A stretch of 40,093 nucleotides of DNA, taken from assembly GCA_965233585.1 (NCBI GenBank), contig CBDDTI010000382.1, positions 1 to 40,093 of the forward strand, read 5' to 3'. Positions 3,330-38,781 of this stretch are shown in pieces. This stretch comes from a bacterium (GTDB lineage: Bacteria; SAR324; NAC60-12). A model generated the notes under the pieces. The model was not told the DNA's origin. It was given only the letters and a program-made list of their open reading frames with translations, and made no database searches. A program made the position numbers and the translations under genes. Positions within the stretch are counted from its first letter, which is position 1; every line of letters starts with the position of its first letter.

Positions 3330-4677
3330 TGAACCCTGAGGGAGGAAAGAGACAGCGCGAATAGTTTGGTTCAAAAACTTTCGCTTCATCTTACCACATA
3401 GGCTAATTATCTAATTCATTCCTGTCATCTAAATGATTCAAGTCCATTGAGTGTTCAATAGAGTGAGAGAAAGATCCAGCGTGCCAGTACAAATCTTAGC
3501 AGTACTGACATGGGGCATGGCAGAAAATTAAAGATAAAAAAGTTTTTTGGTACAGTAGATGATGCTGAGAAAAATTCGGACGAAAATATTTTTTTCACTT
3601 CAATGAATTTTGATGTTGTCGCCACCATTTCTCTGTTAGTAAAAAGTTAACACTGAAAACTTCAACATGTTTTCTCCATATTACTGTCTTTTTTTATTAA
3701 ATATGATATTTTTTCTCATTGGGGAAAAAAGTGTTAATAACTTAACAAAGAATTTAAAATTTTTATGGAATTTTTACAGTGACTCCTCTAGAGAGAAGAG
3801 AAGGAAGAAGTGTTTTCTTCTTACAAGAAAGAAGTTTTTGAATTTTCCCACTTTCCAGAGCATGCCTTCACTGGTGGTGCAATCTATGCGTCAAAGGCTG
3901 AACTATTTTCTGACACGCCCCTTAGTGGGGAAATATTCATCAGTTGACCAAGCCAGACCAGTGTCCGGACTGTTAAGTTTTGTACTGGCACAAATGTTTT
4001 GTTATACAATTGTTTAACAAAACAAAATTAAATAATACAAAAGTGTTGCGATACAATTGTTTTATTAATCTTCACTATCCAAAATCTACAGTGTTAAGTA
4101 TAACTCAGAATTCTGAAAAATATGTTGTAACTTCTCCATGATGAAAAATTTTGTGTGAGCTAAGCACATAGCAGAGCAAAAAATATATTAGTTGGAACAA
4201 GTATTTTAGCAAATTAGAGTCAAAACTGAAAAAAATGAATATAGTATTGGAAAGATAATAATTTTACCCTACTTTTGCCCTAGTTTTATTGAAACATTAC
4301 TGAGGGGTTTTACAGAAAATCAAAAATTGGGTTATCAAGCAGTGCATTGGGTTGACAGGTTTTCTCATCATTTTAGATGGGCAAGATGAGGTAGGGCTGA
4401 AAAAATTTTTGGTGTACCCTGGTGGGATGGTGAGCAAGGGGCATAATTGTATCCTCTAATTTTACATGCCCGCAATTTTGGGATTCAATTACAGAATAGG
4501 AGAAAACGGATGACAGAAGCTTGTTTTTAGATGTTTTCGGCCCGAATTCATCTAAATTCATCTAAATGCGTTCTAAATTCATCTAAATTCATCTAGATGC
4601 GTTCTCGTTGCAAGCAAAACGTCAACTGATTCAATCTAAAATCATCTAAATGCACACCGATTTCTGGTGCGTGCACC

Positions 4678-4982
4678 AAAAGTTTGGTGCGTGCATTGCT
4701 GTGTCTAATGCTGGCATGAGAAATTTGGTGCGTGCACCAAAAGTTTGGTGCCGGCATTGCTCCGTCTAATGCCGGCATGAGAAATTTGGTGCGTGCATGA
4801 AAAGTTTGGTGCCTGCATTGCTTCGTCTAATGCTGGCATGAAAAGTTTGACGCGTGCACGAAAAATCTGGTGCCTGCATTGCTTTGTCTAATGCTGGCAT
4901 GAGAAGTTTGGTGCGTGCATCAAAAGTTTGGTGCCTGCATTGCTCTGTCTAATGCAGGCATGAAAAAGTTGGTGCACGCACT
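4678..4982 (+). repeat. Five 61-bp tandem units inside the left TIR
   Basis: Units start at 4678, 4739, 4800, 4861 and 4922; consensus aaaagtttggtgcctgcattgctNNgtctaatgctggcatgaraartttggtgcgtgcaNN. Confidence 0.92.
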
Positions 4983-5028
4983 AAAAATTTCATGCACGCA
5001 TCAAAATTTTACTTGTCTGCATTACTTT

Positions 5029-5088
5029 TTCTGGTGCCGGGATCTCAATTTTGACGCTGGCATGAAATTTTAGATCCCGGCACCAGAA
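5029..5088. other. Perfect 17-bp inverted repeat (hairpin) near the inner end of the left TIR
   Basis: ttctggtgccgggatct (5029-5045) and agatcccggcaccagaa (5072-5088); mirrored at 24616-24675. Confidence 0.85.
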
Positions 5089-5242
5089 TGTCAGCGGTCC
5101 ATAGACGAAGAAACGTGCTCAATAACTTGGGGGTTTTTCTTTTCTTTTTTTGCAATAAACTTCAACGGAATGCTGTTACTAAATAGTTAAGGAAATTGCA
5201 AAAATATGGAAATTTTATTTTTATCTTTTCATCTTCTTTTTC

Positions 5243-6757
5243 TTAAAACTTTCTAACAATCAATTTAGGAAATGGCTTCTTGTAAAACGGGTTTTTTTTT
5301 TTACTATTGCGTCTTAATTTTGAAAGTGGTTCATTTTCATCGTAATTTTTATAAGGCTTTTTGTAAAATGGGTTTTTTCGTAATTTAAAAAGCTGTATTT
5401 CATCATCAGTCAACTTTTTTAACTCTTTCTTTTCTTTCTTCGTTTTTACACCTCGATGTCTTAATTTAGAAAGTGGCTCGTTTTCATCAAAAGTCGACTC
5501 TTTTGACTTTCTCTTTGTCGGTTTTGCATTTATTTTTTTATTTTTTACATTGCGTCTTAATTTCGAAAGTGGTTCATTTTCATCGAAATTTTCACAAGGC
5601 TTCTTGTAAAACGGGTTTTTTCGTAATTTAAAAAGCTTCCCATCCTGTTTAAGTATTTCATCAACAGTCAACTTTTTTAATTCTTTCTTTTCTTTCTTCG
5701 TATTGTATTTTTTATAAGGCTTCATGTAAAACGGGTTTTTTCGTAATTTAAAAACCTTTTCATCTTGTTTAGGTATTTCATCAACAGTTAATTTTCTTGA
5801 TTCTTTCTTTTCTTTCTTCGTTTTTACACCTTGACGTCTTAATTTAGAAAGTGGCTCGTTTTCATCAAAAGTTGACTTTTTTACCTTTTTCTTTGTTGGT
5901 TTTGCATTTAATTTTTTATTTTTTACATTGCGTCTTAATTTCGAAAGTGGTTCATTTTCATCGTAATTTTTAGTTAAACAATCACGTTTTCGCCGCTTTG
6001 ATGGAATGCCGCTTTCATCCTCGTCACTAATGTTTTTTCTTTTGCCGCGAAAAGATGGCAAAGGTTCCTTGGTTTTGTTTGAATTGCGCTCAATTTTGGC
6101 CTTTTCCAATGTTTCTCTCGCTAATCTTTCTTCTTCCAAACTAGCGCGGTAGTTGTGTTTATTACGCAAATGTTGCATAAGAAAATATACCCTTGAGTAG
6201 GTTGCATAGTTACAAAACGGGCATCTAAGTTTTGGCGGAACGATGTTTTTCTTTTTCAAGTCGATGTTTGATGGTTCGCAGTGTTGAGGCTGAGGCTCGT
6301 TATTAAGTAAATTTTCCGATGCAATTTCCTGATGCGAAAGCGTTATTTCCTTTTGATGTCTTACGTTTTCCGCTTCCGTTGGATTTACAGGTGGAAAGAT
6401 GAAATTAGGACCATCGGGCTGGCTTCCGCTTGATGGAGGGACAGAAGTAAAACCATTTTGCGAGAGTTCTTCGCTGTTTCGAGCAGGCAAGGTGTTTATT
6501 TCCATCTGTGCTGGCTGCTCAATGTTATTGAACGTATTTACCAAAGTTGAAACCGTTTTCTTCAAATCTTCCGGTTGTGTCTTGTAGGATTTCTGCTGCT
6601 TAAATTGAATAGCGTCTTCTATATAATTTGCACCTTTATTCAATTGATCTAATTGATTAAGCTTGTCATCTTCGCTAATGACCTCCCTCAAGGCAAGGTA
6701 AATTCGTTTCGGCACCAAAAACATGGTGGATACGTCCTCTTCCTGTTTCTTTTTCAT
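5243..6757 (-). CDS. Element protein (504 aa) with a C2H2 zinc finger and a Lys-rich repetitive C-terminus
   Basis: CPFC-x12-HLRNKH finger; DENEPLSKLR x5, FKLRKNPFYxKP x3, TKKEKKE x3; ATGA overlap with the upstream ORF. Confidence 0.8.
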   Translation of the reverse strand: MKKKQEEDVSTMFLVPKRIYLALREVISEDDKLNQLDQLNKGANYIEDAIQFKQQKSYKTQPEDLKKTVSTLVNTFNNIEQPAQMEINTLPARNSEELSQNGFTSVPPSSGSQPDGPNFIFPPVNPTEAENVRHQKEITLSHQEIASENLLNNEPQPQHCEPSNIDLKKKNIVPPKLRCPFCNYATYSRVYFLMQHLRNKHNYRASLEEERLARETLEKAKIERNSNKTKEPLPSFRGKRKNISDEDESGIPSKRRKRDCLTKNYDENEPLSKLRRNVKNKKLNAKPTKKKVKKSTFDENEPLSKLRRQGVKTKKEKKESRKLTVDEIPKQDEKVFKLRKNPFYMKPYKKYNTKKEKKELKKLTVDEILKQDGKLFKLRKNPFYKKPCENFDENEPLSKLRRNVKNKKINAKPTKRKSKESTFDENEPLSKLRHRGVKTKKEKKELKKLTDDEIQLFKLRKNPFYKKPYKNYDENEPLSKLRRNSKKKNPFYKKPFPKLIVRKF

Positions 6758-7107
6758 TTTGTAATAAGTTGAGTGATTAGAGGTATTACAGCGCTAGCAA
6801 TAGCCGTCAGAACCCCGATTATGCCTCCTCTTTGCAGTATTCGCTTCTTTTTGCAAATATCTCGACTATTGCGCGGGTAATTTGACAGTTTTTTAAAGTC
6901 AGGCAGATGACACCCGACTTTCGATCTTAACCTTGCTCGAACGCGCTTACTAAAAGTAAGCTCTCCGTTCAAAACGTAGTGTATTATTCGACACAGAGTA
7001 TAGATGCCTTCCTCGTTTAAACATCCAATGAAATTGGAACAGTCACGGTCTTTTAAATGTTTTACCGCGTTTAAAAGAGAAACTGCTTTTTCTAGTGATT
7101 TCGTCAT
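6754..7107 (-). CDS. Small basic virion-type protein (117 aa) with C-terminal GG plus hydrophobic helix
   Basis: Ends KKKRILQRGG-IIGVLTAIASAVIPLITQLITK, the pattern of small Polinton proteins encoded next to the ATPase; function inferred. Confidence 0.7.
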   Translation of the reverse strand: MTKSLEKAVSLLNAVKHLKDRDCSNFIGCLNEEGIYTLCRIIHYVLNGELTFSKRVRARLRSKVGCHLPDFKKLSNYPRNSRDICKKKRILQRGGIIGVLTAIASAVIPLITQLITK

Positions 7108-7137
7108 TTACCATTCTACTAAACGATTTTGCCATTC

Positions 7138-7824
7138 TTACGTGCGTACGTTGTACGCCCTTGTAGGCTGTTCGTCCGGAAAAATATGACTTCTTAATCG
7201 AACCAAATTATTCTGTTGCTGATGAAAATCCAGCAGTAAATAGCCATAAGGTCTTTCACCGGTTGCTGCCGCATATGCATCGTTTAGCCGATGCACGTTA
7301 CCCGGATACACCTGTTTAGCCAGGTGCGAGACGGCACTACGGTCTCTGGGATTGTTGAATAAAATCATGTACTGCGAGTTGATGCTGAGCATTCTGAGTT
7401 CGCTTTTGGCGCTAAACATGTTCTGACACAAAAAAACTGTCAAACAATTATAATGATGCGTTAAAACCGTGAAAAAGTGCTTTAGCACCGTTCCTACTTC
7501 ATCAAGAAAATCGTCAAATACTACAATTTTCGGAAGAGCTCTAGGGAACGTTTCCAGTATATCTTTCATCTCTTCAACCGATTCTGGCATGGATGAAAAT
7601 TTGCAGAACCTTTTCTCACGCGCGTCATCGTTCATCCCTCGCTCCATATCAGCATAGGCTGGTTGAAATTCTTTGTAAAATAGAATCATACATTCCGGAA
7701 CGGGCGAGCACATTACGGCCCTATCTTCAACCAGTTTTTTTAGCCATGACGTTTTTCCGCAAGAAGTGGGACCTACCGCGAGTAAGTTAGATGGAAGCTT
7801 AAAGCGCAAATCAAATCCGTCCAT
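7138..7824 (-). CDS. Genome-packaging ATPase (A32/FtsK-HerA-like)
   Basis: Walker A GPTSCGKT, Walker B IVVFDD, HHYNCLTVFLCQN, PYGYLLLD. Likely start MDGFDLRF at 7824 (ORF open from 7872). Confidence 0.93.
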   Translation of the reverse strand: MDGFDLRFKLPSNLLAVGPTSCGKTSWLKKLVEDRAVMCSPVPECMILFYKEFQPAYADMERGMNDDAREKRFCKFSSMPESVEEMKDILETFPRALPKIVVFDDFLDEVGTVLKHFFTVLTHHYNCLTVFLCQNMFSAKSELRMLSINSQYMILFNNPRDRSAVSHLAKQVYPGNVHRLNDAYAAATGERPYGYLLLDFHQQQNNLVRLRSHIFPDEQPTRAYNVRT

Positions 7825-7887
7825 GTTTTTAATTTTTCTTGACACAAAAAAGAGACAAGATATTACCATCAATTTTTATCAATACGT

Positions 7888-10800
7888 TTATTTGATTTCC
7901 TTACATTCATGTTTACAACATTTTTTTACATGACAACTTCCTAAGGCCAAAGTGCACTTTCCGCAAGAAAGCACATAACGTTTGGTGTCCATGGCAGATA
8001 GAGCAATTTTTCGTTGGTGGGTTGTTGACATTCTGTGATTCTTTGATTTAATATTAACAAGAGGCTTATATACCAATGTTGATTCGTTTAAACATTTTTT
8101 GTAATCCTCAAAGGTCAAGTGATTTTTAATACTAGTTTTTTTAAGGCCCTTACAAATTTTCTTTACGCTGGCTCCTCGGGTTTTCAAATCCTTGACCGTC
8201 ATGCTGTAACATTTTGGCCTTAAGCCGATAAATTCAGTAATTGCGGCCTTTCCTTTTAGCTCGTCTTTGAAGTAAAACAAATGGTTGGCTCTGCTATCGT
8301 CAAACAACTCGTGATCTTTATCGTATTTTGAGAAGTCGAACATGTGTTCCATTCTTTTTAACTTTTTAACTAAATTTTGACATTTTACTTGAAACAGAAA
8401 CGAGTCTGTGTCCGAAAAGCACAACTTTAGATTCTCCGTTCCAAAATAACGTCTAAATTTGTCGTACGATCGATACATGTAGAGTTTGGATAGTTCCAAA
8501 ATCGCAAACCCCACCGCCAACGGTTTCTTCATTTCAATAACGGCCGGTTTTTTCATGACAGCCACAAGGTTTTCGTTTATGACTTTCAAATTCGAAACAT
8601 GCTGACCCATGCAAGTCTTTCTCAGCTTCTTTTCATTGTGGCACAACACGATTTCGATGTAGTTTCGCGCGTTCTCTGAAAAAAAATTAAACATTTTATT
8701 GTGAAAAAAGGGAGCCATTACTTTATTTTACCTATAAATTTGCCAAATGTGGAATTGGCAAACAACTTGAAGAGACGTAATTCAAAATCAGTTTTCGCCT
8801 CCGACCTTAATTTTGTAATTTTTGTGATAAAGTTTTTTAAAAAGTCTTTTTGCTCAAACTTGACCGCTCGTCTGATTTTTGTAAGCTTCAGCCCTCGCCT
8901 CAAATAATACTTTAGATTATCTAACAAGACGACATAATTACGTCGCGGGTAGAATGTGGCAAGAAGCTTTCGCGAACTGTAACGTTTGTTTTTGTAATCA
9001 GCCGGACAGTGCTTCTTCAAAAGTTGTTTGTTAAACGGTGACAGATCATCAAAGTTTATTGTGTCAGTGTAAGGAGCCAAAGGAAATTGATCATCTCTCT
9101 GCAAAATAAATAAAAAAATTTTTCTAGCAGTTGGTGTTTAGCAAAAACAAATTTTTTTACCTTATGATATTTTTTTGGATAGTGCAAATCCACTTCAAAA
9201 GCATAGCCAATCCTGCTTTGCGAAGGCAAATTCAAAATGTCCTTGTCCGTCCATGTTTTTATCACCTTTTTTGGCACCCACTTAAAATTACCCACCGGCA
9301 GCATGCGTGTTTCCATGCTGCCGTAAAGATTGTTAGCTGAAAATGTATCGTAATTTTAATCAATCTTTTTTTCTTTGACGTTTAATAAAAAATATTACCA
9401 TCTACATATAGTAAATGCTCGCCGCTCGCTTTAGGATCGGCCTGACCCGTCGCTTGTCTGGTAGCTATAAAACTCTGCCCTCCTCTAATGCCGCGTGTAA
9501 AAAACTGTTCCATTGCCGGATCGTGAAACAAGTCCAATGAGCCCGGTGGTTTCGACATAAAATCGGCACTAATCTCTTCTTCGTCTTTTCTTTCTTCATT
9601 TTGAAACATTTTCAGCATGATGTCAAATGACAAGCCAGGTATACCTAAATAGTAGATGGGATCCAACTCAAAGTGCTTCATCACCATTTCTCGATACTTT
9701 ACAAAAATCTCAGCCAGCAAAATCACGTCCAGTCCGCAATATAACTTCATGTAGTCGTCCATATTTTTACAATTAAAAAACTTGTACACTTCATAGCCGT
9801 GCTTATGATCTTCGGTTGAGATGTGGGCTTCGCTCAATCTCGAGTAGAAAGCGTCTTTTGGTGGAAATTGACTGTTTTTAATTGACTCATATGATGAAAA
9901 GTATTCATACGGATATACTCCTTTTCTTTTCAATAATTTTAAACCTTTCGCCTTTTGTCGCGTCCACAGCCTCCTGTAAGGCTCAAATTGTTTGAGAATC
10001 GGAAAGGTAAACGTCTCATCCTTGCATAAATCGGTCATGAGCGCATCAAGACTGGATGGCACGTGCTCTAGAGAATCCCTAATTTGAAATTTTCCAATAG
10101 TGATTGTCCTAAACTTTTCTTGGTTACTCGCCATCAGATTAGCCTCTTTGTCCAATTTTTCTACTAGTAGATTTATGTCATATCTTAAAATTAAAAAAAT
10201 TAAAAATGACTTTCCCTCAAGTCAAGGATTATAAATATTAAAAAAGTCTGTACTTACCCTTTGGCGTTGTGAAAGTATATAGGTGTTCTAAATGGGCCCT
10301 GTCGTTGCAGATTGCAAATAGAATGCGCCGCTTGAACAATGTTTCCGGTGACGTGATCATGATCAACCACTTTTTTATATAATCGCGAGCCTGAATCAAA
10401 TTCTTTTTTGCAAATATGACATAGCGTGGCGGCGCGGTACTCTTCCCAATCATGTTTGCTCGCTATAATTTGAGATGTGTTCTTGAACCGTTGCTTTCGC
10501 GCTTCCACTAATTCTTCGAAATAATCCAGCTTTGATAGAAAATTTTCCACAGCGTCTTTTCCACTGTACGTTTCTTGATAAAATACTTCGTTTTCCGAAT
10601 CGACAAAACAAATTGAATAGCCGCAAGCTCGATGTTTACTTAGCTCAGTGCATCCCGACACTTGACATTCGCATGTCACCCACGCTTTTCCGCATGTTTT
10701 ACATGTTTTTGCTTCTTGCTCTGACTTTTCCATAAAACACTCAAAATCAGCAAATCCCACTACAGGTGCTTTAAAAGCATTTCTTTGCTTATCGAAATTC

Positions 10801-11453
10801 AAGACACTGCCCTTTTCCGGATAAATCACCGCTTGTTTATCCATTTGACAGATTTTTTCGTGTAATTTTTGTTTCTTGTGCGAACGAAAATCTCTTAAAC
10901 AGCTGTCACAAAAATAAAACTGACTTCTATGCCGTCTTCCTTTGGTCATAGCAGATTTTCGGTTGTTCAAAAAGCCATTTAAATTAGCAATAGTGAAAAA
11001 ATGGTGCTGATGCTCAAGGTCTTTTACGTTGGAAATGCCATTTACGTCAATGCTGTCTTTATTGGCCGATGAAATTCGACAATCACTTTTAATCATTAGC
11101 AAATTTAGCGTATTTTTGTTCTTATTTTTCTCGCCAGATCTATTGGAGAAAACGTCTAAAACACTCAGTTGATGTTCACCTTCAAAAAGAACTCTTATAC
11201 GTAACGGTAGGTGCTTGTTAATTCGAACAAACTTACTAATCTGGCTAAACTGCAGGGGAAAGGTTAAACCTTGCAAGTTAAATTTACTTTCATACTCCTT
11301 GGGAATTTTTTCGCATCGTCTGATGTTTGCCGTTTCCGGCCAAAGATGTCGTATGACACAATATAGAAAGTTCTTTTCATCGTATTTTCTGTTCCATAAA
11401 ACACTTCGACACTTTAATAAATACTCGGGCACGTTTACAGAGTCGCTGTTCAT
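7888..11453 (-). CDS. pPolB: Protein-primed family B DNA polymerase, 5 exons, 1103 aa after splicing
   Basis: Exons 11453-10258, 10183-9399, 9336-9161, 9098-8732, 8675-7888 total 3312 nt in frame. Motifs: ExoI FADFEC, HNH/EndoVII-like DHDHVTG..AHSICNL, ExoII FHNAKGYD, KGVYPYEY, ExoIII YCGLDV, motif A YVDANNLYG, motif B KLFANSTFGK, motif C SDTDS, PKCY. Confidence 0.95.
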
Positions 11454-11456
11454 TTT

Positions 11457-12092
11457 TTAAAAAATACTGCTACAGTCATAGATTAAAACGCTGCAACTTT
11501 GAAGTTGAGCAAATCGCCAGCCTGAACCTCTAGTTAACAAATCGTCTTCCCTCTCCACCGATCCAACCAAAAGTGACTTTATCCTATCTCGAATCTGCTC
11601 ATCGCTTTGATATTTGTTGACCGCGACGCCTTTTGACCGTAACGTGAAAGAATCGATGTCGACGCTTTTTCCCTGACTTTCTTCATCTAAACCCTGTATC
11701 TCGTAATCTGCCGTGATTGTTATACTTATTCGACAAACCACCCGATGTGTAAATTGACTTTTAACGAGATTCAACACATTTTCGATCGTTTGCTTAGAGT
11801 TGCAAAAATCTTGCAAAGAGCTTTTTAAGTGAGTCAGTTCTTGTTGGAAAATGCAAACTTTGTCGCCAATGGCTCCTTGCCTTTTAGAAAATACCCTTGA
11901 TTCCGCGTGATTCGAATCTACGTGTGACGATAACTCGTTCTTATCACTGTATTTAAGTTCACAAAACGGGCACTTTCTTAACTTGTCGCGACCACTATGA
12001 TTTGCTTGATTTCTGTGTTTTAATTTTAAATGATTGACAAGACGACTCTTTCTGGAAAACGATATGTGACACGTTTCACACTTGTGCGTCAT
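11457..12092 (-). CDS. pPolB N-terminal region (putative terminal protein) with two C2H2 fingers, present as a separate 211-aa ORF
   Basis: CETC..HLKLKH and CPFC..HVDSNH fingers; RGSGW motif typical of the Polinton pPolB N-terminus; ends TAA-AAA-ATG in frame with the polymerase ORF. Confidence 0.75.
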   Translation of the reverse strand: MTHKCETCHISFSRKSRLVNHLKLKHRNQANHSGRDKLRKCPFCELKYSDKNELSSHVDSNHAESRVFSKRQGAIGDKVCIFQQELTHLKSSLQDFCNSKQTIENVLNLVKSQFTHRVVCRISITITADYEIQGLDEESQGKSVDIDSFTLRSKGVAVNKYQSDEQIRDRIKSLLVGSVEREDDLLTRGSGWRFAQLQSCSVLIYDCSSIF

Positions 12093-12187
12093 TCTTTTTT
12101 TCTCTCGCTTTTAAACTTTTTCTGAAAAAGGAAAAAATGATGTATCTTATAATCTTTAATATATACACACACAAACAATTGTTATAT

Positions 12188-12958
12188 TTACAATAAATTA
12201 TTTGCACTTTCTACAAATTCTTGGACTTCAGTTAAATTTTTTTTATACAGATCGCGTATGGAAGGGTTTAAAAACAAATTTCCCCCTTGCGACTCGTAAA
12301 ATACGAGCAAGGGGGACACCTTACTTAAAATTTTTTTCAATTTTTCCGTAAAAACCTGCGGATCCGGACAGGGGCGGTTTACCCTCAAGTCGAGCCCCTC
12401 ACTAATGACCCCTCCATTTACCGACACGCGCGGTAATCTTACCACCCTTTGCGGTTCGGGGATGACGAGTCGCGGCGGTGCAGCTAGAAGCGGAGTTGTT
12501 ATCGGTGCCGGACGGATCGGCCTTAGCTGAGCCCGCAAAGCCCTCATGTCACACAACATTGGGGATTGCGGGAGGGGCACAGCCGTTGGAGACATAATTG
12601 GTAGTCTCGGTGGAGCCGGAGTTGGGGGGCCCGGCAAAAACAAAGCAGGTTGAAGCGGACGATAGGGAGCCGGCATTGAATAGACCGGTGATGCCACGGG
12701 CGATGGGGAAGGCGGAGGGCTGTAACACACCGGTCTGAACGATGTGTTTGGTGTCGAGGTTAAAAGGGGCTCAGTTCTAATTCGTATAAAGGAAGTGGAA
12801 AGGGAAGCGGGCGGTGAATTCGAAGGCAGCGCGACGGTGGAAGATGCGGACGTGAGCTCGACCGAGACTTGTTCCACTGGTGTCCTTCTTCCCAGTTTTA
12901 TTTGGAAAGGCCCACACCTCTTAAAACCAATCAATCTTGATTCCCTATTTTTTGGCAT
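12188..12958 (-). CDS. Proline-rich, probably disordered protein (256 aa) with a helical C-terminus; function unknown
   Basis: Long GC-rich ORF in AT-rich context, co-oriented with pPolB, with ATG 3 nt downstream of an acceptor-like gctttctag. Confidence 0.7.
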   Translation of the reverse strand: MPKNRESRLIGFKRCGPFQIKLGRRTPVEQVSVELTSASSTVALPSNSPPASLSTSFIRIRTEPLLTSTPNTSFRPVCYSPPPSPSPVASPVYSMPAPYRPLQPALFLPGPPTPAPPRLPIMSPTAVPLPQSPMLCDMRALRAQLRPIRPAPITTPLLAAPPRLVIPEPQRVVRLPRVSVNGGVISEGLDLRVNRPCPDPQVFTEKLKKILSKVSPLLVFYESQGGNLFLNPSIRDLYKKNLTEVQEFVESANNLL

Positions 12959-12992
12959 TGTCTAGAAAGCAGGGTGGTTGAAATCAGGTTTA

Positions 12993-13100
12993 AAATTTTT
13001 TGCGTAAGCTCAATTTTGGGTAAAAAATTTTAAGACTTTGAGCACTTGTTAAATTTTTTTTTTGCGTAAGCTCAATTTGTGTAAAAAATTTTTAGACTTT
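12993..13100. repeat. Imperfect ~48-bp direct repeat x2 in the divergent control region
   Basis: aaatttttt(ttt)gcgtaagctcaattt.g.gtaaaaaatttt.agacttt at 12993-13039 and 13051-13100. Confidence 0.8.
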
Positions 13101-13999
13101 AACCAACTTTATGTTTAAAAATATTTTTAAAAAAACTTCAATGTTTAAAAATTGTAAAGACTTTTTTGTCTACTTACGATTTTTTCAAGTGTCTAAAAGA
13201 TAAAACCAGGATCTTTTCGGTTTCAGTTTAGATTTTGGAATGACTCCTTATCTCAAAAAGGGTCATTCATGTAAACTTTTTAATAGTAGAAAAAAGGCGC
13301 AAAAATTAAACCTGGTTTTTTTCAAAAGATAATTAATTTTGGAGAAAATTTTAACCTTTCTTGTAAATCCTTTTTATCCCCGCAACCTGACGTCAGATTG
13401 TGTTTTCCGTGCAATTTTCCTTTATTTTTGTTCATTTTTCCGCACATGCATTAAGGCTTAAAGCAAAAGCGCCGAAATTGGAGCAAATTAATGACAAGAT
13501 ATGAGACAGTGTGTTTGCTAAAAATTGTTTTTTTTCTTTTAAACAACAGTCAATTTTTTTAGCAGCACACCCATTAAAATAAATCAGCAAAAGGAAAAAA
13601 GATTAATTATTAAAAGATTAACAATCGGGTCTTTGCACCCTTTTTTGCGGTCAAAGAAATAAAGAATGACAATTTTCTGGAAGGAAAATTAGCGTTGAAA
13701 ACCATTAAGCAGAAAAACCATTAGCTCAAGTGAGAAAAAAAGCACGTGCCAAGGAGCAGCATCTAGAAAGGAGAAAAAATTCTCCATTTTACAAAAGATG
13801 CCCTAATTTTAGGTCATTTTACCGACAAAAAAAATTTGAAATGAGCATTTTTAAATTTTTTTCAAACCTTTATAAAAATAATTGCTTTTAGATTTTTCTA
13901 GTTTCTTCTAGAACTTTTTTTGCCTTAAAATGGGTTAAAAAGTTGACCATAATTTCATCGAGAATATTCTAGCATTTGCCATTATACAAGTCAAAATAG

Positions 14000-14007
14000 T
14001 ATAAAAG
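14000..14007 (+). promoter_or_regulatory. Canonical TATA box upstream of the 14089 gene
   Basis: TATAAAAG, 89 nt before the ATG. Confidence 0.55.
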
Positions 14008-14088
14008 CCAATTTGCGCTTTTGGTGAAACACCAATAATAGTTTGACTGGCTTCACATCCACACCTAAGATAAAACATCGGTCGCGTC

Positions 14089-15304
14089 ATGGGTAAACCG
14101 GCTACATCATCTGAAAGCAATGGCAAAGGCAGCAAGACGATCTTGTACAAAAAAAAGGGGAAGTCTGCGCATAAAAAGGTCGCGAAAAAGACACCGTTCG
14201 AAAAAAGCCACGTTGAAAAAACGTCAAAAGTTTACACCAAAGAGCAAAAAAGTAGTAAACTTGCCAAATCCCGTTCGTCATCTGCGAACAAAGGACATAA
14301 GCAATTAGAAGATTCCGACTCAGACATGGAGAAGGATGAGGACATGAGAGACAACGAGAATTCAAGCGATGACGAGTCTGAAGAATCCGGCTCAGAGAAC
14401 ATGCAAGACGGCTCTGATAACGATGATAACGATGTTGAGTCTGATGCTGCCCAAGATGATAACGAGGATGACGATGATGACGAAGATGATGACGATGCTC
14501 CGACTGATATTGAAGAACCGGAGATGGAGGATCAAAGAAAGCCGTTTTGCGCGAAAAAAAGACCAAGGTCCGATTCAGGCAAAAAGAAATTACCCGATTC
14601 AAAGAGGAAAAATTATGTCGAGCCGGAGCCGGTTTCGTCCAAGGTGGATGGGATTAATTTGACAAGGAAAAAGCAAGAGGAGTTGTTTCGACCCTGCAAA
14701 TGGGATCTTAACGAGCGCGTAAAAACCGCGGAGGTAAACTTTTCCAAGTGGCTTGAAAGCCACAGCCATCGCGAACAATATTTTATTGGAGACGACGGGG
14801 TGAGTAAAACAGTTTAGAATCAGCTCAGCGTATTTTTAATTTAAAAAACTTTTCTGCGCTGTTTTGCTCAACAGTACATCTACCCTAATCCAGCCACCAT
14901 GAAAAAGTTTATTGAGGCTTTTAAAAACAAGGAGGTGTCATCGCGATCGGTGAGCTTGCCTTTTGCCCCAATGAGCAAAGTGATTGCATCCAACCCTAGG
15001 ATGGTAATTGGAGTTAGCGGCGTTAGGCATATCCAGCGTGCTGCGGGCCTTAGCGTGTGGCCGGTATTTTACGTCTCTAAAGAGCAGGTAAGGCGAAATA
15101 AAAATGTAAATAGAAAAAAATTGATCGGAAAAATGCGTAAAAAAATCTTTTTTCCCGCAGTATAACGACAACAACAAAAGCCACAGCACCAAGATAATTA
15201 GGATGAATTTTCCTCTGCACAAGTTGGATGAATTTACCGAGGGTATGGTGGAGCTGTGTCAAGGTCTGGATTTTCCCATCAATGCCAAACTCGGCGGCAA
15301 GTGA
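14089..15304 (+). CDS. 3-exon gene (355 aa): basic then acidic N-terminus, C-terminal domain possibly PC4/whirly-like ssDNA-binding
   Basis: Exons 14089-14799, 14875-15087, 15161-15304; phase-0 introns gtgagt..caacag (14800-14874) and gtaagg..cccgcag (15088-15160) join three open frames. The fold call is an inference. Confidence 0.75.
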
Positions 15305-15427
15305 AGATGCGTGTGTGCAACCGCGGCAACAGCCGCGGCAACGGCGGCGACTGCAGCTTTGCTGCAGAACAGAAATCAGATTTGCGGCTTTTTATTAACT
15401 AAAACATTATAGGCAATTCTGTATATT

Positions 15428-15913
15428 CTAATAAAGCTTGACTTGCAAACAATTAACTAAATGTTTGACGCGTTTTTCATTTTCGCGTAAATTAACGGGA
15501 TTAAAAAAAGTGCAAAAGTGCCGCGGATTCGCGTTTGCGTATGCATTGACAAACATGCAGAATGCGGCAGCATACCACCCGCAAAACAATGAATCGAAAG
15601 CTTGAATCGATCGGTCCAAGACATGTCTTATTCTGCCGCAATTTTCCCATTTTTTCAAAAAATGGATGAGGTGGTGATTATAGGCGGGCACGGGTAGTGC
15701 ATAGCTGTCGAAATAATACAAATAGTTTTGCTTATTAATAAAAAAGGCGATGAAATGACTGCCGGGATGGCTTGAAACCGAAAGATTGACGATGGCGCAA
15801 CAGCTAGTGTTCCACAAGTTTGAGGGTATCGTGTCGACTGCAAAGGTGCCGATGAAATTCTTGCAAAGTGGGGATAAAAACCGATCTAGAAATACGTTGC
15901 TCAAACCGGTCAT
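15428..15913 (-). CDS. Adenain-like cysteine maturation protease
   Basis: Catalytic H (GSHFIAF), D (YFDSY), Q and C (IQAFDSLFCGWY). Confidence 0.93.
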   Translation of the reverse strand: MTGLSNVFLDRFLSPLCKNFIGTFAVDTIPSNLWNTSCCAIVNLSVSSHPGSHFIAFFINKQNYLYYFDSYALPVPAYNHHLIHFLKKWENCGRIRHVLDRSIQAFDSLFCGWYAAAFCMFVNAYANANPRHFCTFFNPVNLRENEKRVKHLVNCLQVKLY

Positions 15914-17247
15914 TATCGCTCTTCGGCCCTAACAACTTGGCCGTTCTCCTCTATTTTAATTCCGGAATTAAAAATGCTGTAGGCTAGCAGGTAGATGGGG
16001 TGAGGCTTGGCTGTTTTAAAGCCTAATTCCAAGTCCAACTTGCCTTTTTCGTCGGGGTGAATGTGAAAACTGTTGCAGCGATCGGGGGTCAAATCGGCAG
16101 TTAGAAAACATCTTCCTCTCTTAAAAACCGCGGGCGAAATGTCGCAAGAACTATTTGAAATGCCGAAACCCGTGCTGTCGTACATGTGTCTGTACAGGTC
16201 CATGTAGTTATCATCATCAAAATCCGGCTGAAAAGCTTTTGGGAAGACGCATTGTCCGTTTTTAATAAGATTGAAATAATTAAGATCAAAGTGTTGAAAG
16301 TCGAACGGGTTGAATTTGCTATCGTGCGTCAAGGCTTGGTTGTGAATTAGGGTGAAAATAACTTGTTTGGGCAGTATTTGTGAGGCAATATTGGTAACGG
16401 TGTACGATGTGACGCCGGCTGGAATCACAAAAACCTTCAACTGACTCAGCTTAAAGGGTATATAGCAGGGCTGTTGAGACATTTTCATCCTAAAATGCTT
16501 TCTCTGCTGCTCGACCGGCAAAACTTTTCTCATTTTCAACTTTAAATCCTTTAAAACGATTTTAAAAGATTTGTCATCTTCGGCGTGAAGAATACCAAAT
16601 GTCGGACTGTTTCTAATAAGCTTAATCTTGATGTCGACATTCGGTGGCATATACTTATCCGTATACATAATATCCGCCCCCAATCGAGAGCAGAAATAAA
16701 CTTTTTTGCCGTGAAGTATAAGATTTCGACGGTGTATTAAACGCTGATTTATACCGGGCTCGCAAGCTCCAATATCGTTTTCTTTTTCTTCAAAATAACC
16801 TTCGGCTCTTAGCTGACTCTGTTTGGCCTCTCTATCAAACGACAACTCGGTCTGGATAAAGTTTTTGAAAGGGTAGGAATTTGCCGTGCTCAAGTCGCAG
16901 ACTTGAGTACCGTTAATGTAGATTTCAACCGCGCTAAATAGATTGCTCGCGAAATTATTGGCCAAAAAGACTCGATCGTCGGGTCCGACATTTTCATCCT
17001 TTGCTGTCTTGACAACGAAATGCCCTATTAATCTAGTCTGATCCAGAATGATGGAACACTCTTCGTCTCGCGGGATGATGAATTCGATCGGTCCGGTGTT
17101 TGAAACGCTGGAAACGCTGTTGTAGACCACATCATTGCCTTTTTCAAGGCTTATATCGACCCCGAGCGGCGCGTGCAGATCAAGAGCTTGTTCTGTCAAA
17201 TCGTCCTGCTCGAACCCTAGACCTCCGATGCCGCCCTTTTCAGTCAT
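15913..17247 (-). CDS. Major capsid protein (double jelly-roll), paralog B, 444 aa
   Basis: Polinton MCP-type motifs PIEFxI, LFSAVEIYING, SYPFKNFI, KYMPPNVDIKIKLIR, LPKQVIF, NPFDFQHFDL, DLTPD. Confidence 0.88.
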   Translation of the reverse strand: MTEKGGIGGLGFEQDDLTEQALDLHAPLGVDISLEKGNDVVYNSVSSVSNTGPIEFIIPRDEECSIILDQTRLIGHFVVKTAKDENVGPDDRVFLANNFASNLFSAVEIYINGTQVCDLSTANSYPFKNFIQTELSFDREAKQSQLRAEGYFEEKENDIGACEPGINQRLIHRRNLILHGKKVYFCSRLGADIMYTDKYMPPNVDIKIKLIRNSPTFGILHAEDDKSFKIVLKDLKLKMRKVLPVEQQRKHFRMKMSQQPCYIPFKLSQLKVFVIPAGVTSYTVTNIASQILPKQVIFTLIHNQALTHDSKFNPFDFQHFDLNYFNLIKNGQCVFPKAFQPDFDDDNYMDLYRHMYDSTGFGISNSSCDISPAVFKRGRCFLTADLTPDRCNSFHIHPDEKGKLDLELGFKTAKPHPIYLLAYSIFNSGIKIEENGQVVRAEER

Positions 17248-17316
17248 TGTCGAAAATGCATGCTAGTCTGTAGTTTTCTGTTCTTCTTAAAAAGAGGGAG
17301 TCGGTGGTGTGCAATT

Positions 17317-18657
17317 TTAATATTTTATTTTGGTAACCTGAAGGTTGCTGTCGATGGAAATGGCAGCATTATAAATAGCGTAAGAAATCAGGGTTAGGGG
17401 GGTTCTGGTGGGGGTGTTAAAAGTCAAGTCTAGTTCTAAATTTCCGGGCACTCCGACGTGATTGTGAAAGGATAGGCATTTATCCGGAGTCAAGTCGAAC
17501 GCGAGAAACATCTGACCCCCTGTAAAAGCTTGGGGTGAAATACAATTTCTGCCGCCGACGTTGCTTTGAAAATGGTCGTACAATTCCATATAATCGCCTG
17601 TAAGTATCTTGCATTCTATAGGTCTAGGCATGAGAAGTCTTCCATTGTTTTTTAAAATGACGGATCCTAAATCGGCGTGTTTAAATTTAAAGGGAAATTG
17701 ATCGCTCGGTCCCTTGGCAAAAAGGTCGCTTCGAAGCATGCAGAAAATAATTTGTTGCGGCAACATCTCGCTATTGTTGATGTGATTTGCAGAGAAACTA
17801 AGGGAACCAGACGGGATCAGATAATGCTTCATCTGCGTGTCTTTAAAAGGCAGAAAAAATGGTCGACCTTTTAGCAGTTCGGCGTTTAGCCTGTTTCGCA
17901 CACGCTCGCACGGTAACACTTTTCTCATGCGAAGTTTTAATTCCTTTAAACGAATGCGATAGACTTTGTTCGGATTATCTTGAAGCAGCCCGAAACACGG
18001 GTTGAACCTGCGTAATACAACAGTGATTTCCACATTCGGAGGTAAATATTTGTCGGTGTAAAAAATATCTGCGGGCAAAGTTGAGCTAAAATAAACTTTT
18101 TTGTCGTTTATTATTTTCGCGCGATTCTCCGCGATGCATTGGCACATTTTACCGGTCGTGGTAATATTGTCAAAGCATTTGTCGTGGTGCGTTCGGCAAA
18201 AGCCTTCGGACCGTCCCACATTTGTTAATACATTATTGTTATAGGACAGGAGAAAGTCAATGTGGTGTTTGTACGAATAAGAAAGAGGGGCACTCAAATC
18301 ACATATTTGAGTTCCGTTAAGGTGGACTTCAATTTGCGAGAATAATGCGGCGCAATAATGGTTAGTAATTGTTGGCGTGTCAGTGTCTGTTACACCCTCG
18401 CCGCTGTCGGTCTTTACCACAAAGTAACCCTCTAGCCTTGTCTGATTTAAAACAAAAGCGCATTCGGGGTCGGAAGGAATTGAAAACGTAACATCTTCTA
18501 AATCTTCGACGGGAGTCACGCTATTATATAGCACAGTACGACCTGATATTAAATCCGTGTCTTCGAGGGGGGTCGCATGCGCATTCAAACTATCACCCTG
18601 CAATTCATTGAAATCCACATTTAAACCGCCGACACCGCCATTAATCAACGATGACAT
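17317..18657 (-). CDS. Major capsid protein (double jelly-roll), paralog A, 446 aa
   Basis: Colinear with paralog B: QTRLEGYFVVKT, LFSQIEVHLNGTQICDLS, YTDKYLPPNV, MRKVLP, LPQQIIF, FDLTPDKCLSFHNH. Confidence 0.88.
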   Translation of the reverse strand: MSSLINGGVGGLNVDFNELQGDSLNAHATPLEDTDLISGRTVLYNSVTPVEDLEDVTFSIPSDPECAFVLNQTRLEGYFVVKTDSGEGVTDTDTPTITNHYCAALFSQIEVHLNGTQICDLSAPLSYSYKHHIDFLLSYNNNVLTNVGRSEGFCRTHHDKCFDNITTTGKMCQCIAENRAKIINDKKVYFSSTLPADIFYTDKYLPPNVEITVVLRRFNPCFGLLQDNPNKVYRIRLKELKLRMRKVLPCERVRNRLNAELLKGRPFFLPFKDTQMKHYLIPSGSLSFSANHINNSEMLPQQIIFCMLRSDLFAKGPSDQFPFKFKHADLGSVILKNNGRLLMPRPIECKILTGDYMELYDHFQSNVGGRNCISPQAFTGGQMFLAFDLTPDKCLSFHNHVGVPGNLELDLTFNTPTRTPLTLISYAIYNAAISIDSNLQVTKIKY

Positions 18658-19211
18658 TTTTAGACAACACGGAGCACGTCACTGTCACAAATATAAAGCT
18701 TAGCTGCACAATTATTCTTACGGATGAGGGGCCGTTATCCTTAAATAAAGATGTGACACAAAAAGTTTTTAGTAATTTTACGGTAGTGAGGAAACAATAC
18801 GTCTACACCATTTTCAAGACCCGCGGAAACAACAAATCATATCATGTCAATATTACCAAAGTGCCGTCGCGAGCGGATATAAAAATATCGTTAAGTCTGC
18901 TGACGGACATTATCAGCAATCGTTTCTTTGTGCAAACATGGGAAATAAACAATTTAACTTGTTCCTTTCGTGCGGGCTTTGAGATACCGCTGCCGGACGT
19001 TTTTGATAAACTTCGAAAGGAGAGCTACGTGAAAAAAGTACGCTTCAATCCCGAACGTTTCCCGGGCATGTTTGTGACTTTTGAAGCCAACACGGTTTTA
19101 ATATTTTCCACAGGCAAGATGGTAATCATCGGGGCCAAGTCCGAAGATGCGGTCAAACATAGTTTGGACTTTATTATAGATTTTTTGAAACAATATAAAA
19201 GCGATCGATAG
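18651..19211 (+). CDS. TBP: TATA-binding-protein-like factor (186 aa), intronless
   Basis: Clear C-terminal TBP repeat INNLTCSF..FEIPL..FNPERFPGMFVTF..TVLIFSTGKMVIIGAKSEDAV; divergent N-terminal repeat VTNIKLSC..NFTVVR..YTIF..VNITK. Confidence 0.9.
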   Translation: MTFLDNTEHVTVTNIKLSCTIILTDEGPLSLNKDVTQKVFSNFTVVRKQYVYTIFKTRGNNKSYHVNITKVPSRADIKISLSLLTDIISNRFFVQTWEINNLTCSFRAGFEIPLPDVFDKLRKESYVKKVRFNPERFPGMFVTFEANTVLIFSTGKMVIIGAKSEDAVKHSLDFIIDFLKQYKSDR

Positions 19212-19229
19212 TTGATTTGCGTTTCAGTT
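19194..19229 (+). promoter_or_regulatory. TATA plus initiator core promoter for the TFIIB-like gene
   Basis: TATAAAAG at 19194 and TCAGTT at 19224-19229 (A 32 nt downstream of the first T); ATG at 19255. Confidence 0.65.
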
Positions 19230-19254
19230 TTGCAGCGCGTGCGGAGAAATAAAC

Positions 19255-19977
19255 ATGCCTCGCTTTCATAATTTCAACAGGACTTGTTCTCATTACAATA
19301 TTGTGGATGATTTTTCAAACGGGTGTGAAGTATGTACAGATTGCGGGCTCGTGATGCATGATCGGCTATATGCCTCGTATGACTATCGGCTCGAATCGAT
19401 TAAAACGGAGAAAATGAGCGAGGATGTGACTTGCGACAAAAACAATTTTACTGATGAGACAATGCAAAGGGTATGCTATAAGTGCAATATCGAATGCGCG
19501 GATTTAAAACGCGTCATCGCCAAAAAATGGGACGCTAGCGGGAAAAGAGGGAAAAGAGGTGTTTGTTTAGAAAGTTTAGCGGTAATGTGCATCTACTCCG
19601 CGCTTATAGAGTCGGGGGTGCCGCGACCGATGAAAGATTTATGTGCCATAACCGGCGTCAAGCAGGACAAAGTGTGGCAATATCTTAAAAACGACGACTC
19701 TTTCTACAGCCCAAATTTAATGTGCGAATATTTTCTTCACTCTTTAAATCTAAGCTACAAGGAGTTGAAGGAAATTAGAGAGAAAGTAAAGCAACACGAA
19801 AAAAAGTTTGTTTTTTCGCCAAAAACACTAATCGCGGCATGCGCGCACGTCTTTTTAAGAGAACAACGGAGTAGGGTTGATCAGGAAAAGCCGAAAAGCT
19901 TATCACGTTTAGCCGAGCAATTAGGCGTTAGTCCGATGGCCTTAAGCAGGTGCGTCAAAAAAATTGAAAATTGTTAA
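19255..19977 (+). CDS. TFIIB: TFIIB-like transcription initiation factor (240 aa), intronless
   Basis: Zn ribbon CSH..IVDDFSNGCEVCTDCGLV; cyclin repeat 1 ESLAVMCIYSAL..GVPRPMKDLCAITGV; repeat 2 SPKTLIAACAHV..SLSRLAEQLGVSPMALSRCVKKI. Confidence 0.88.
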   Translation: MPRFHNFNRTCSHYNIVDDFSNGCEVCTDCGLVMHDRLYASYDYRLESIKTEKMSEDVTCDKNNFTDETMQRVCYKCNIECADLKRVIAKKWDASGKRGKRGVCLESLAVMCIYSALIESGVPRPMKDLCAITGVKQDKVWQYLKNDDSFYSPNLMCEYFLHSLNLSYKELKEIREKVKQHEKKFVFSPKTLIAACAHVFLREQRSRVDQEKPKSLSRLAEQLGVSPMALSRCVKKIENC

Positions 19978-19980
19978 AGT

Positions 19981-21481: not shown

Positions 21482-21486
21482 CAAGT

Positions 21487-23079: not shown

Positions 23080-23145
23080 AAAACATGATCTGTATTTGAG
23101 CACATTAAAATAAAATTTTGATGTGTATTTCTAGTTTAAACGCGA

Positions 23146-23400
23146 TTAAACATTATCATTTTCTGATTTGTCTGGTTCTGACCAAGCAGCGTAGAATGCT
23201 CCTACGGTTGAAAAGAGCAAGAAAAAAATTAATGCCATTATAATAAATGGGGTTGAGGTTCTTGTATTATCTGACGACGATAGGAGTTTATCCAAGGTGT
23301 TAATTACAATCTTGTTAATAGCGTTCGTTGTGATGTTGGGGGCGGCGGTAACGTTTGACACGTCTGCCACTTGATAATTGTCTTGGCGGGGGGAACTCAT
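23146..23400 (-). CDS. Small putative membrane protein (84 aa)
   Basis: One hydrophobic segment FIIMALIFFLLFSTVGAFYAAW; ATGA overlap with the upstream ORF. Confidence 0.6.
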   Translation of the reverse strand: MSSPRQDNYQVADVSNVTAAPNITTNAINKIVINTLDKLLSSSDNTRTSTPFIIMALIFFLLFSTVGAFYAAWSEPDKSENDNV

Positions 23401-24008: not shown

Positions 24009-24042
24009 GTTGATGTTGATTTTTCAAGTGATGGATTTGAAA

Positions 24043-25140: not shown

Positions 25141-28737
<3,597 letters not shown>

Positions 28738-35848: not shown

Positions 35849-38781
<2,933 letters not shown>

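Follow-up and report, generated by a model that had tools for sequence, protein, structure and literature searches.

Separate genes for a predicted terminal protein and for a polymerase with a nucleophile-less vOTU-like domain in a Polinton-type element

Here we describe a Polinton/Maverick-type element in which the terminal protein (TP) and the family B DNA polymerase that uses a protein primer (pPolB) are laid out as two adjacent genes, and in which the viral OTU-like (vOTU) domain that opens the polymerase has Asn where a nucleophilic Cys is expected. The element lies in the window—the whole 40,093-nucleotide (nt) stretch analyzed, contig CBDDTI010000382.1 of assembly GCA_965233585.1—and its TP-like open reading frame (ORF) stops at the place where related fused proteins carry a Gly-Gly-type motif. 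The two-gene layout and the Asn recur at every junction of this kind found in the assembly, the two proteins are modelled with TP-type and OTU folds, and both parts are under purifying selection. We regard it as quite probable that the element produces a free TP and an independently started polymerase with a dead vOTU domain, the stop codon standing at the old cleavage site. The original prediction, made from the letters of the window alone, had proposed that gene fission replaced proteolysis and that the stop is no random nonsense mutation; this interpretation is supported, the main caveats being that the in-frame arrangement of the two ORFs is incidental and that a single event is involved. 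The features on which the argument turns are the following.

12092-11457, minus strand: TP gene, 211 codons plus a TAA stop at 11459-11457 (the ORF itself spans 12092-11460)
11907..12092, minus strand: two C2H2 zinc fingers, residues 1-62, from Pfam zf-C2H2 and the predicted model
11460..11903, minus strand: predicted TP domain (D1-type, little-finger/PAD-like), residues 64-211
11523..11525, minus strand: Ser190 (TCA), candidate DNA-linking residue, in a G-S-G-W loop and an invariant column
11454..11456, minus strand: intergenic spacer, AAA in the window and 2 nt in the eight other copies of its family
7888..11453, minus strand: gene for the polymerase with the altered vOTU-like domain (vOTU*-pPolB), 5 exons, 3309 nt = 1103 codons, stop at 7890-7888
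10938..11453, minus strand: vOTU-like domain without nucleophile, residues 1-172
11370..11372, minus strand: Asn28 (AAC) at the position of the catalytic Cys, first residue of helix 28-37
11001..11003, minus strand: His151 within strand 148-155, in the alignment column of the fused relatives' catalytic His

On the minus strand the junction reads ...RGSGWRFAQLQSCSVLIYDCSSIF-TAA (11459-11457)-AAA-ATG (11453-11451)-NSDSVNVPEYLLKCRSVLWNRKYDEKNFLYC, with the ATG at 11453 opening MNSDSVNVPEYLLKCRSVLWNRKYDEKNFLYC... and a T6A6 run occupying 11464-11453. A tblastn search of the whole assembly (747 contigs) found 39 places with the C-terminal part of a homologue of the upstream protein, and at each of them a homologue of the polymerase start comes next on the same strand. 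All 39 junctions consist of a stop (TAA or TGA), a spacer, an ATG and an Asn at the nucleophile position, with spacers of 2, 3, 18, 20, 49-53 or 79 nt. They fall into four families: A, which includes the window; B, with 43-45% identity to the window in the TP and 53-64% in polymerase exon 1; and C and D, with 23-26% and 38-45%, respectively. Right after the ATG, the codon differences between families A and B are mostly synonymous (judged by eye). Outside the assembly, 23 of 23 database relatives (47-97% identity, 264-426 residues) start at the equivalent Met and have the Asn, the Met lying 16-26 residues before Y-D-E-K/R-N-F-L-Y; one of them has a 30-residue extension. The question raised by the prediction of whether other copies share both the stop and the Asn is answered by these counts, and a recent nonsense mutation is ruled out because the stop, ATG and Asn are common to all junctions of four diverged families.

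The two ORFs had been described as in frame, with one stop and an immediate ATG between them; the sequence and coordinates are exact for the window, but the in-frame relation is not general. Only three of the 39 junctions are in frame (the window, C593 and C608) and the other 36 are in other frames; within families the spacer varies by 1 nt (2/3, 49/50, 52/53), altering the frame relation. Among nine aligned family-A copies the TAA and the ATG are present in all nine; an A6 tract is unique to the window, with T6A5 in five copies and T6-AATAA in three, and in the other eight copies the ATG lies 2 nt past the stop, in a different frame. The in-frame arrangement is incidental to the window copy. 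The T6A6 run, over which the prediction had asked for raw reads to be checked, is covered by read-derived contigs of four public runs: none has another letter at 11457-11459, and all are one letter short in the run. These are contigs from one study, probably the window's own source, and hence are not independent. Gene borders elsewhere in the element are similarly tight—TAATG between the capsid-like and protease-like genes, ATGA, and TAA plus 3 nt plus ATG—so the border between the TP and polymerase genes looks ordinary for this element. A shared promoter or splice-acceptor motif before the polymerase ATG was considered and rejected; acceptor-like AGs are confined to family A and missing from C and D.

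Downstream of the junction, the polymerase appears in five frames in a prokaryote-style ORF list, and its coding sequence is resolved by four spliceosomal-type introns.

11453-10258, 10183-9399, 9336-9161, 9098-8732, 8675-7891, minus strand: polymerase exons, from splice borders, phases and open frames
10184..10257, minus strand: intron 1, 74 nt, GTAAGT...TTTTAAG, joins FHNAKG to YDINLL
9337..9398, minus strand: intron 2, 62 nt, GTAAT...TTTTCAG, joins LLYVD to ANNLYG
9099..9160, minus strand: intron 3, 62 nt, GTAAA...TTTGCAG
8676..8731, minus strand: intron 4, 56 nt, GTAAA...TTTTCAG, joins FGKFI to ENARNY

Splicing re-forms FHNAKG|YD (the Exo II motif), YVD|ANNLYG (motif A) and the stretch FGKFI|ENARNY. 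Pfam DNA_pol_B_2 matches two of the exons (E 3.8e-7 and 1.4e-6), and the product is homologous to family B polymerases of 1100-1450 residues; a sequence search of the PDB with exon 1 gave no match. The break points are identical in other copies, including one that is only 87% identical, and the peptides that run up to the breaks recur as well (TPIYFHNAKG in 10 of 10 copies, LLYVDGNIFY in 8 of 10). The polymerase gene of the window copy reads as intact, since the exon phases sum to 1103 codons and every exon lies in an open frame. This carries a warning for annotation: under prokaryote-style ORF calling the polymerase looks shattered, yet it reads as an intact five-exon gene.

The introns bear directly on one alternative, namely that the window holds a decaying pseudogene copy whose true product is a fused TP-vOTU-polymerase and whose stop arose by a chance nonsense mutation. 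The window ORFs are indeed in frame with a single TAA between them and the polymerase is seemingly broken into five frames; the breaks, however, are four GT..AG introns of 56-74 nt. The stop recurs at 39 of 39 junctions in four diverged families and three spacer classes, as both TAA and TGA, the database relatives all start at the same Met, and nonsynonymous to synonymous substitution ratios (dN/dS) of 0.10-0.23 are found on both sides. That the copies are assembly duplicates of one locus is disfavoured by their different flanks and by identities of 84-99%. We give this alternative almost no weight, and the earlier claim that the stop is not a random nonsense mutation holds on all three grounds: junctions, relatives and substitution ratios.

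In five pairs drawn from within or between neighbouring families, dN/dS came to 0.11-0.18 in the TP, to 0.10-0.23 in the vOTU-like domain and to 0.01-0.16 in the remainder of exon 1; dS was saturated in a sixth pair (A versus B). These ratios indicate purifying selection on both genes.

A fused product could also arise by recoding—a -1 ribosomal or transcriptional slip on T6A5, or read-through of the stop, regulated in the manner of gag-pol. In eight of nine family-A copies the polymerase frame is -1 relative to the TP frame; it stays open over the four codons that precede the ATG, through a U6 run finishing in the stop. The junctions of the window, C593 and C608 are in frame with one stop. 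The U6 run, however, is out of the X XXY YYZ register for the TP frame (by eye), and a slip could not fuse the junctions of families C and D or those of C98 and C212, which together make up 27 of the 39. Their spacers are 49-79 nt long; a stop lies immediately 5' of the ATG in families C and D, and in C98 and C212 the spacer holds stops in all frames; the 1-nt spacer variation within families shifts the frame without consequence, and the ATG is kept in all 39. Read-through and frameshifting are ruled out for most junctions because of the long spacers with stops and the varied frames, and as a general account recoding is very unlikely.

Alternatively, a short spliceosomal intron across the stop could join both ORFs into one messenger RNA. 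Introns of 56-74 nt are spliced in the same gene, a GTATTT lies 5 nt 5' of the stop, and the 49-53-nt spacers of families C and D are intron-sized. In family A the GTATTT is the only donor-like GT 5' of the stop, and pairing it with the downstream AGs gives introns of 21/22, 43/44, 55/56 or 63/64 nt, none of which joins the frames; all but the shortest would remove residues whose codons show conservation. A donor of the GTAAG/GTAAT type is absent ahead of the stop in families C and D. Such an intron would also cut off the last strand of the TP (192-206), which is modelled with high confidence, and no joint is seen in the contigs of the four public runs (DNA-type runs). An intron of this kind is extremely improbable.

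The upstream gene encodes a 211-residue protein whose assignment as a TP is made by homology and position. The model (predicted local distance difference test, pLDDT, 86.9) shows two zinc fingers, each a beta-beta-alpha unit, followed by an alpha/beta domain; the first finger is matched by Pfam zf-C2H2 (E 5e-6) with a second finger beside it. Against known structures the model matches little-finger/PAD domains, and the domain fits the D1 fold, a four-stranded sheet (with an extra strand in some members) and two helices related to the Y-family little finger/PAD. The TPs of PRD1 and adenoviruses are assigned a fold of the same type (PMC11161782, title of section 7). In BFVD the model matches an adintovirus C2H2 protein (E 1.6e-8) as well as bidnavirus-like and MELD-virus polymerase N-termini, while a PDB sequence search with the TP profile returned zinc-finger matches only.

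The candidate for linkage to DNA is Ser190, which lies in R-G-S-G-W in the modelled loop that connects helix 164-187 with strand 192-206. Only three columns are invariant in 30 TP-like sequences, Ser190 (30/30) among them, and the equivalent Ser is invariant in 8 of 8 fused relatives (alignment column S180). The Ser, Thr or Tyr that makes the link in the TPs of PRD1 and adenoviruses is found in the loop joining alpha2 to the last strand, close to a Gly or Pro (PMC11161782); the position of Ser190 fits this description, and a priming role is predicted for it.

Homology to the N-terminal part of fused polymerases is seen at several levels. When 1.8 billion representative proteins were scanned with the upstream protein, many stand-alone homologues of about 145-325 residues turned up with end-to-end coverage, together with a few long proteins that carry a TP-like part at the N-terminus. 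The stand-alone set aligns with the fused set in hhalign (99.9%, E 3.4e-34, 207 columns, mapping to columns 38-244), and phmmer gives full-length matches of the upstream protein to P0090, P0127, P0136 and P0151. These alignments identify the upstream ORF, at the level of sequence, as a homologue of the N-terminal TP part of fused pPolBs. For the distant stand-alone groups P0040 and P0054, no DNA context was found in viral contigs or metagenome contigs and no closer copy in the assembly of the window; four short genome-contig matches to distant TP-like groups (28-47 residues, bacterial metagenome-assembled genome records) were taken as spurious.

Instead of acting as the primer, the 211-residue protein might be a zinc-finger protein that binds DNA or regulates transcription, related to polymerase N-termini by descent only, and priming would be done in some other way. 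Its two C2H2 fingers, a C-terminal fold resembling the DNA-binding little-finger domain, and the presence of TBP-like and TFIIB-like genes in the same element would suit such a role. It aligns, however, over its full length with the part of pPolB identified as TP (PMC11161782, section 6), has a single invariant Ser in the loop where the linking residues of PRD1 and adenovirus TPs lie, and is encoded directly upstream of the polymerase in 39 of 39 cases; a transcription factor is quite unlikely.

Fused relatives provide the reference for the ancestral arrangement. The long proteins P0090, P0127, P0136, P0151, P0139, P0144, P0123 and P0059 run from a TP-like N-terminus through an OTU-like domain to the polymerase. 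The vOTU-polymerase set of the window aligns with the fused set in hhalign (100%, E 1.9e-49, columns 266-599); the two window genes are collinear with one fused protein, as the profiles map to columns 38-244 and 266-599. Counted from the invariant Ser, an [LMF]xG[GSH] motif has its first Gly exactly at Ser+22 in seven of seven fused database proteins and in C492, a fused element of the window's assembly; examples are LSGG, LRGS, FTGG, LMGG and MTGG. The window TP ends at Ser+21, and 29 stand-alone proteins have tails of 17-44 residues, mostly 20-23. The stop is therefore placed at the Gly-Gly-type junction of the fused forms, about where the prediction had expected a Gly-rich junction. Sites of the [LMF]xGG type would suit a deubiquitinase-type protease or the adenain-like protease of the element.

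The fused element C492 (146-4177) is an intronless ORF of 1344 residues that keeps the Cys and is among the 11 fused rows of the alignment considered below; it reads 'GSNWTF...EPLRG|SSYIPLP' and 'DDECF', and C304 is listed alongside it. Two other polymerase genes of fused architecture in the assembly, C493 and C606, keep the Cys and have internal stops. The fused polymerases of the assembly may belong to a different virus or host than the split families.

In a quick maximum-likelihood tree of 36 rows, 27 split (8 from the assembly, 19 from the database) and 9 fused, all split rows lie on one side of a branch with approximate likelihood-ratio support (SH-aLRT) of 100, and the fused rows have very long branches. 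The tree omitted P0154 and P0156-P0158, which are near-copies or fragments of family A, and the fused P0139, which the motif pattern missed, as well as P0123 and P0059. The perfect association of split and Asn is thus not a repeated experiment, because both changes map to one branch.

At the start of the polymerase, residues 1-172 are modelled as an OTU fold (pLDDT 86.3, predicted TM-score 0.83), with structural matches to OTU domains only; a Foldseek search of the model against the PDB gave no match at E <= 0.001. The prediction had read D-E-K-N-F where D-x-x-C-F was expected, and the alignment bears this reading out: Asn28 occupies the column that holds Asn in 28 of 28 split-lineage rows and Cys in 11 of 11 fused rows. 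The codon change is not a single step, Asn (AAY) being two substitutions from Cys (TGY). His151 aligns with the H of 'HY' in the fused relatives; the His column is kept in both split and fused rows, near-invariant in one alignment (A4) and invariant in another (A6). In OTU-type domains of this group the catalytic Cys stands at the start of alpha1 and the His in beta4 (PMC11161782, section 8), and Asn28 and His151 occupy these places in the model. The domain has the OTU fold and a His in the strand, and it has Asn28 in place of the catalytic Cys; judged by its sequence, it would not be an active member of the OTU cysteine proteases. The Cys of 'FLYC', four residues after Asn28, which the prediction had considered as a possible intact catalytic residue, was rejected as a replacement nucleophile: both Cys residues occur together in the active fused relative P0090 ('CFLYC'), and Leu takes this position in families C and D. 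The stretch Y24 D25 N28 F29 L30 Y31 C32 H36 L37 W38 is invariant in 12 of 12 sequences and is the best-conserved part of the domain. The dead domain is maintained and not decaying, because dN/dS is low and conservation is best around the former active site.

What the maintained domain does is a separate matter. It could still be an enzyme, or a ubiquitin- or ISG15-binding decoy against host defence, and not a dock for the TP; viral OTUs act as deubiquitinases against host defences (PMC11161782, section 8), and the strict conservation of His151 and its surrounding motif, with low dN/dS, would fit. Asn, however, is unfit as a thiol nucleophile, and no other Cys is conserved in its stead, since Leu replaces Cys32 in families C and D. 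The predicted complex with the TP, discussed next, is a weak pass and compatible with other partners as well. We consider this alternative unlikely.

For docking, the evidence is a predicted complex between the vOTU-like and TP domains, which scored 0.39 (runs 0.36, 0.70 and 0.39) against 0.01 for the best of three controls. The mark for this score was reached by 116 of 157 solved complexes and by 2 of 215 mismatched pairs; at scores of 0.60 or less, where the present value lies, the passes comprise 18 of the 157 solved complexes and both of the mismatched pairs. The runs agree in at least 0% of contacts, and partner pLDDT is at least 80. The prediction lends weak support to docking of the TP on the dead vOTU domain. 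In adenovirids the dead vOTU may serve the interaction of TP and polymerase (PMC11161782).

These observations can be assembled into a mechanism. In the fused ancestors the TP would have been freed by cleavage at an [LMF]xGG-type site; with a stop at that former site cleavage would become unnecessary, and the protease could turn into a pseudo-enzyme. Gene 1 (12092-11457, minus strand) would now yield a free TP of 211 residues, comprising two C2H2 fingers and a TP domain of the PRD1/adenovirus type, with Ser190 as the residue predicted to be covalently linked to the first nucleotide. Gene 2 would be translated from its own ATG at 11453, 2-3 nt past the TP stop, and after removal of four introns would give a polymerase of 1103 residues, whose N-terminal vOTU domain would retain the OTU fold and the His with Asn replacing the nucleophilic Cys. 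Its translation presumably relies on independent initiation, whether from its own transcript, by reinitiation after the TP stop or through alternative processing. The dead vOTU would be kept as a dock or positioner of the free TP on the polymerase, as suggested for adenovirids.

Several points weigh against this account. Independent initiation at 11453 is suggested by the sequence alone, and a eukaryotic ribosome that scans would not easily use an ATG 2-3 nt past a stop. The polymerase frame could be reached, in eight of nine family-A copies, by slipping -1 on the U6 run that meets the stop, and read-through of one stop would fuse 3 of the 39 junctions, so that minor fused products are possible in the copies concerned. 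A little-finger-like fold is also a plain DNA-binding fold, and the stand-alone TP-like proteins of the databases are gene calls, which are broken at any stop. The split and the loss of the Cys appear as one event each on the same branch, which would leave the causal link between them to a single event plus the adenovirus precedent.

A wider reading of the two-gene account is tentative, and we hold it as possible though somewhat doubtful: the clade would have followed, for a second time, the route that led to the adenovirus module, or it would be a surviving relative of those that followed it first; along this route the TP is detached at the old cleavage site, the vOTU then loses its nucleophile, and the former substrate groove (the invariant Asn28 and the YDEKNFLYCVIRHLWP helix) becomes a permanent dock for the C-terminal tail of the TP. 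If this is true, an enzyme-product complex has been frozen into a subunit interface.

The element that carries these genes is full-length.

4503..25141, no strand assigned: full-length Polinton/Maverick-type element, from inverted repeats, copies in other contigs, and Pfam DNA_pol_B_2, rve and Chromo

Its terminal inverted repeats (4503-4940 versus 24703-25140) are 438 nt long and 93% complementary, and several further contigs contain copies of 4503-25141 that are 97-99% identical over about 20.6 kb. A further ORF (20327-21481) encodes an rve integrase (Pfam rve E 1.9e-10, Chromo E 2.9e-5); a family B polymerase, an rve integrase and long terminal inverted repeats, all marks of Polintons, are thus present. 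A 6-bp target-site duplication is a further feature of Polintons/Mavericks; at this element none is recognisable, the flanks TAGGAG and TTATAC being different and the termini uncertain by 1-2 bases. The ORFs at 15428-15928, 15913-17262 and 17317-18678 have no Pfam match, and their protease and capsid labels come from position and motifs seen by eye; the ATPase label of ORF 7138-7875 likewise comes from position and by-eye motifs, with only a weak Pfam ATPase_2 match (E 0.0027).

Other genes of the element are described here in their own right. A TBP-like ORF lies at 18651-19211 on the plus strand (Pfam TBP, E 1e-16), and the adjoining ORF at 19255-19977, also on the plus strand, has a TFIIB-type zinc ribbon (E 1.4e-4, under the Pfam cut-off) and a C-terminal helix-turn-helix; judging by titles and abstracts, a literature search for polinton and TFIIB returned nothing about polinton-encoded factors. 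The ORFs at 15913-17262 and 17317-18678 (both minus strand) are tandem, about 450 residues each, and mutually similar (YFVVKT, NGTQ.CDLS, DKYLPPNV); at the expected capsid position, they may be a duplicated pair of capsid-like genes. At the left end, an ORF at 5243-6793 (minus strand) encodes 504-516 residues, highly basic, with one C2H2-like finger and no Pfam match, in which a module of about 40-60 residues (DENEPLSKLRR...KKEKKE.KKLT.DEI...FKLRKNPFYKKP) is repeated at least four times. Polypyrimidine-plus-CAG strings occur about 30 nt 5' of the TP start codon (12093-12150, minus strand) and before the start of the TFIIB-like gene (19216-19254, plus strand); their resemblance to 3' splice sites hints at spliced 5' leaders for some genes of the element.

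The breaks in the polymerase gene being spliceosomal-type introns of 56-74 nt, the host is a eukaryote with short introns. The assembly is classed as prokaryote (92% complete, 2% contamination per its table), yet it contains at least 39 Polinton copies in four families with spliceosomal introns, and intron-bearing host-like genes also occur in the window; it seems that eukaryotic contigs ended up in the bin of a bacterial genome. On the right-hand side of the element, the host DNA has a tandem duplication of about 11 kb (25919-27425 and 37261-38781, plus strand) that includes exon-like pieces of one gene and a small minus-strand ORF (27395-27805, 38751-39161), and its two copies differ by few residues.

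Parts of this picture are known already: PMC11161782 describes split TP genes in polintons and a dead vOTU in adenovirids. Its 2024 preplasmiviricot model has a TP split that makes the vOTU protease obsolete, with inactivation following in adenovirids, and a polinton clade with both steps and a stop at the old cleavage site is the state that this scenario predicts. In the literature covered, PMC11161782 alone treats the subject. A split TP and nucleophile loss combined within a polinton clade were not found in that literature, outside which lies the supplementary information of PMC11161782, where more cases may be listed; PMC12721341 and a 2026 preprint, in the portions covered, touch on the TP or the vOTU in passing only. 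Purifying selection acts on the clade's dead domain as strongly as on the polymerase, and the many young copies, the small TP and the clear candidate for the priming Ser make this a tractable system for the role of an inactivated vOTU in protein-primed replication.

Among known systems, canonical polinton pPolBs have the order TP-vOTU-Exo-Palm and, in polintons, the catalytic Cys and His are conserved (PMC11161782). The fused forms used here (P0090, P0127, P0136, P0151, P0144, P0002, P0003 and C492) share with the window the same domains, their order and the invariant Ser, and five of them (P0090, P0127, P0136, P0151 and P0144) share the same C2H2 and TP N-terminus; they differ in being fused, in keeping the Cys, and in carrying [LMF]xG[GSH] at Ser+22, the place of the stop in the window. 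Some polintons acquired TP splits independently (PMC11161782). The example given, Stylophora coral adintovirus (StCAV), resembles the window in having the TP as a separate gene and the vOTU fused to pPolB (section 10 of that source); its vOTU, however, is called catalytically active, whereas the window clade has Asn at all of its junctions and in all of its database relatives.

The closest parallel for both changes is the Adenoviridae, which have a separate TP and a polymerase that retains an N-terminal vOTU-like domain with the active-site residue replaced (PMC11161782). In contrast to adenovirids, the window element is an integrating one, with an rve-chromo integrase and 438-nt inverted repeats; its TP is small (211 residues), has two C2H2 fingers and lacks the large helical insertion of adenovirid TPs described in the same source. 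Its vOTU keeps the His, with only the Cys replaced, and its polymerase gene has spliceosomal introns. A BFVD comparison of the vOTU model with an adenovirus polymerase fragment gave a weak match only (E 0.097).

Bidnavirids have another combination, a fused TP with an inactivated vOTU (PMC11161782, section 8). They are like the window in retaining the inactivated domain, and Bidnaviridae-like 'densovirus' PolB N-termini in BFVD superpose on the window TP model with a root-mean-square deviation of 3.3-4.4 over 110-124 columns; they are unlike it in keeping the TP fused and the entire polymerase on the DNA, whereas the window has a separate TP gene. The best viral structural match of both window models is the C2H2-type protein of Drosophila-associated adintovirus 2 (BFVD A0A7D4VFN9, 560 residues), with E 1.6e-8 and a query-based TM-score (TMq) of 0.62 for the TP model and E 1.2e-3 and TMq 0.47 for the vOTU model. 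Here a single protein matches both models, so that TP and vOTU appear to be joined in this adintovirus and, unlike in the window, not parted into two genes.

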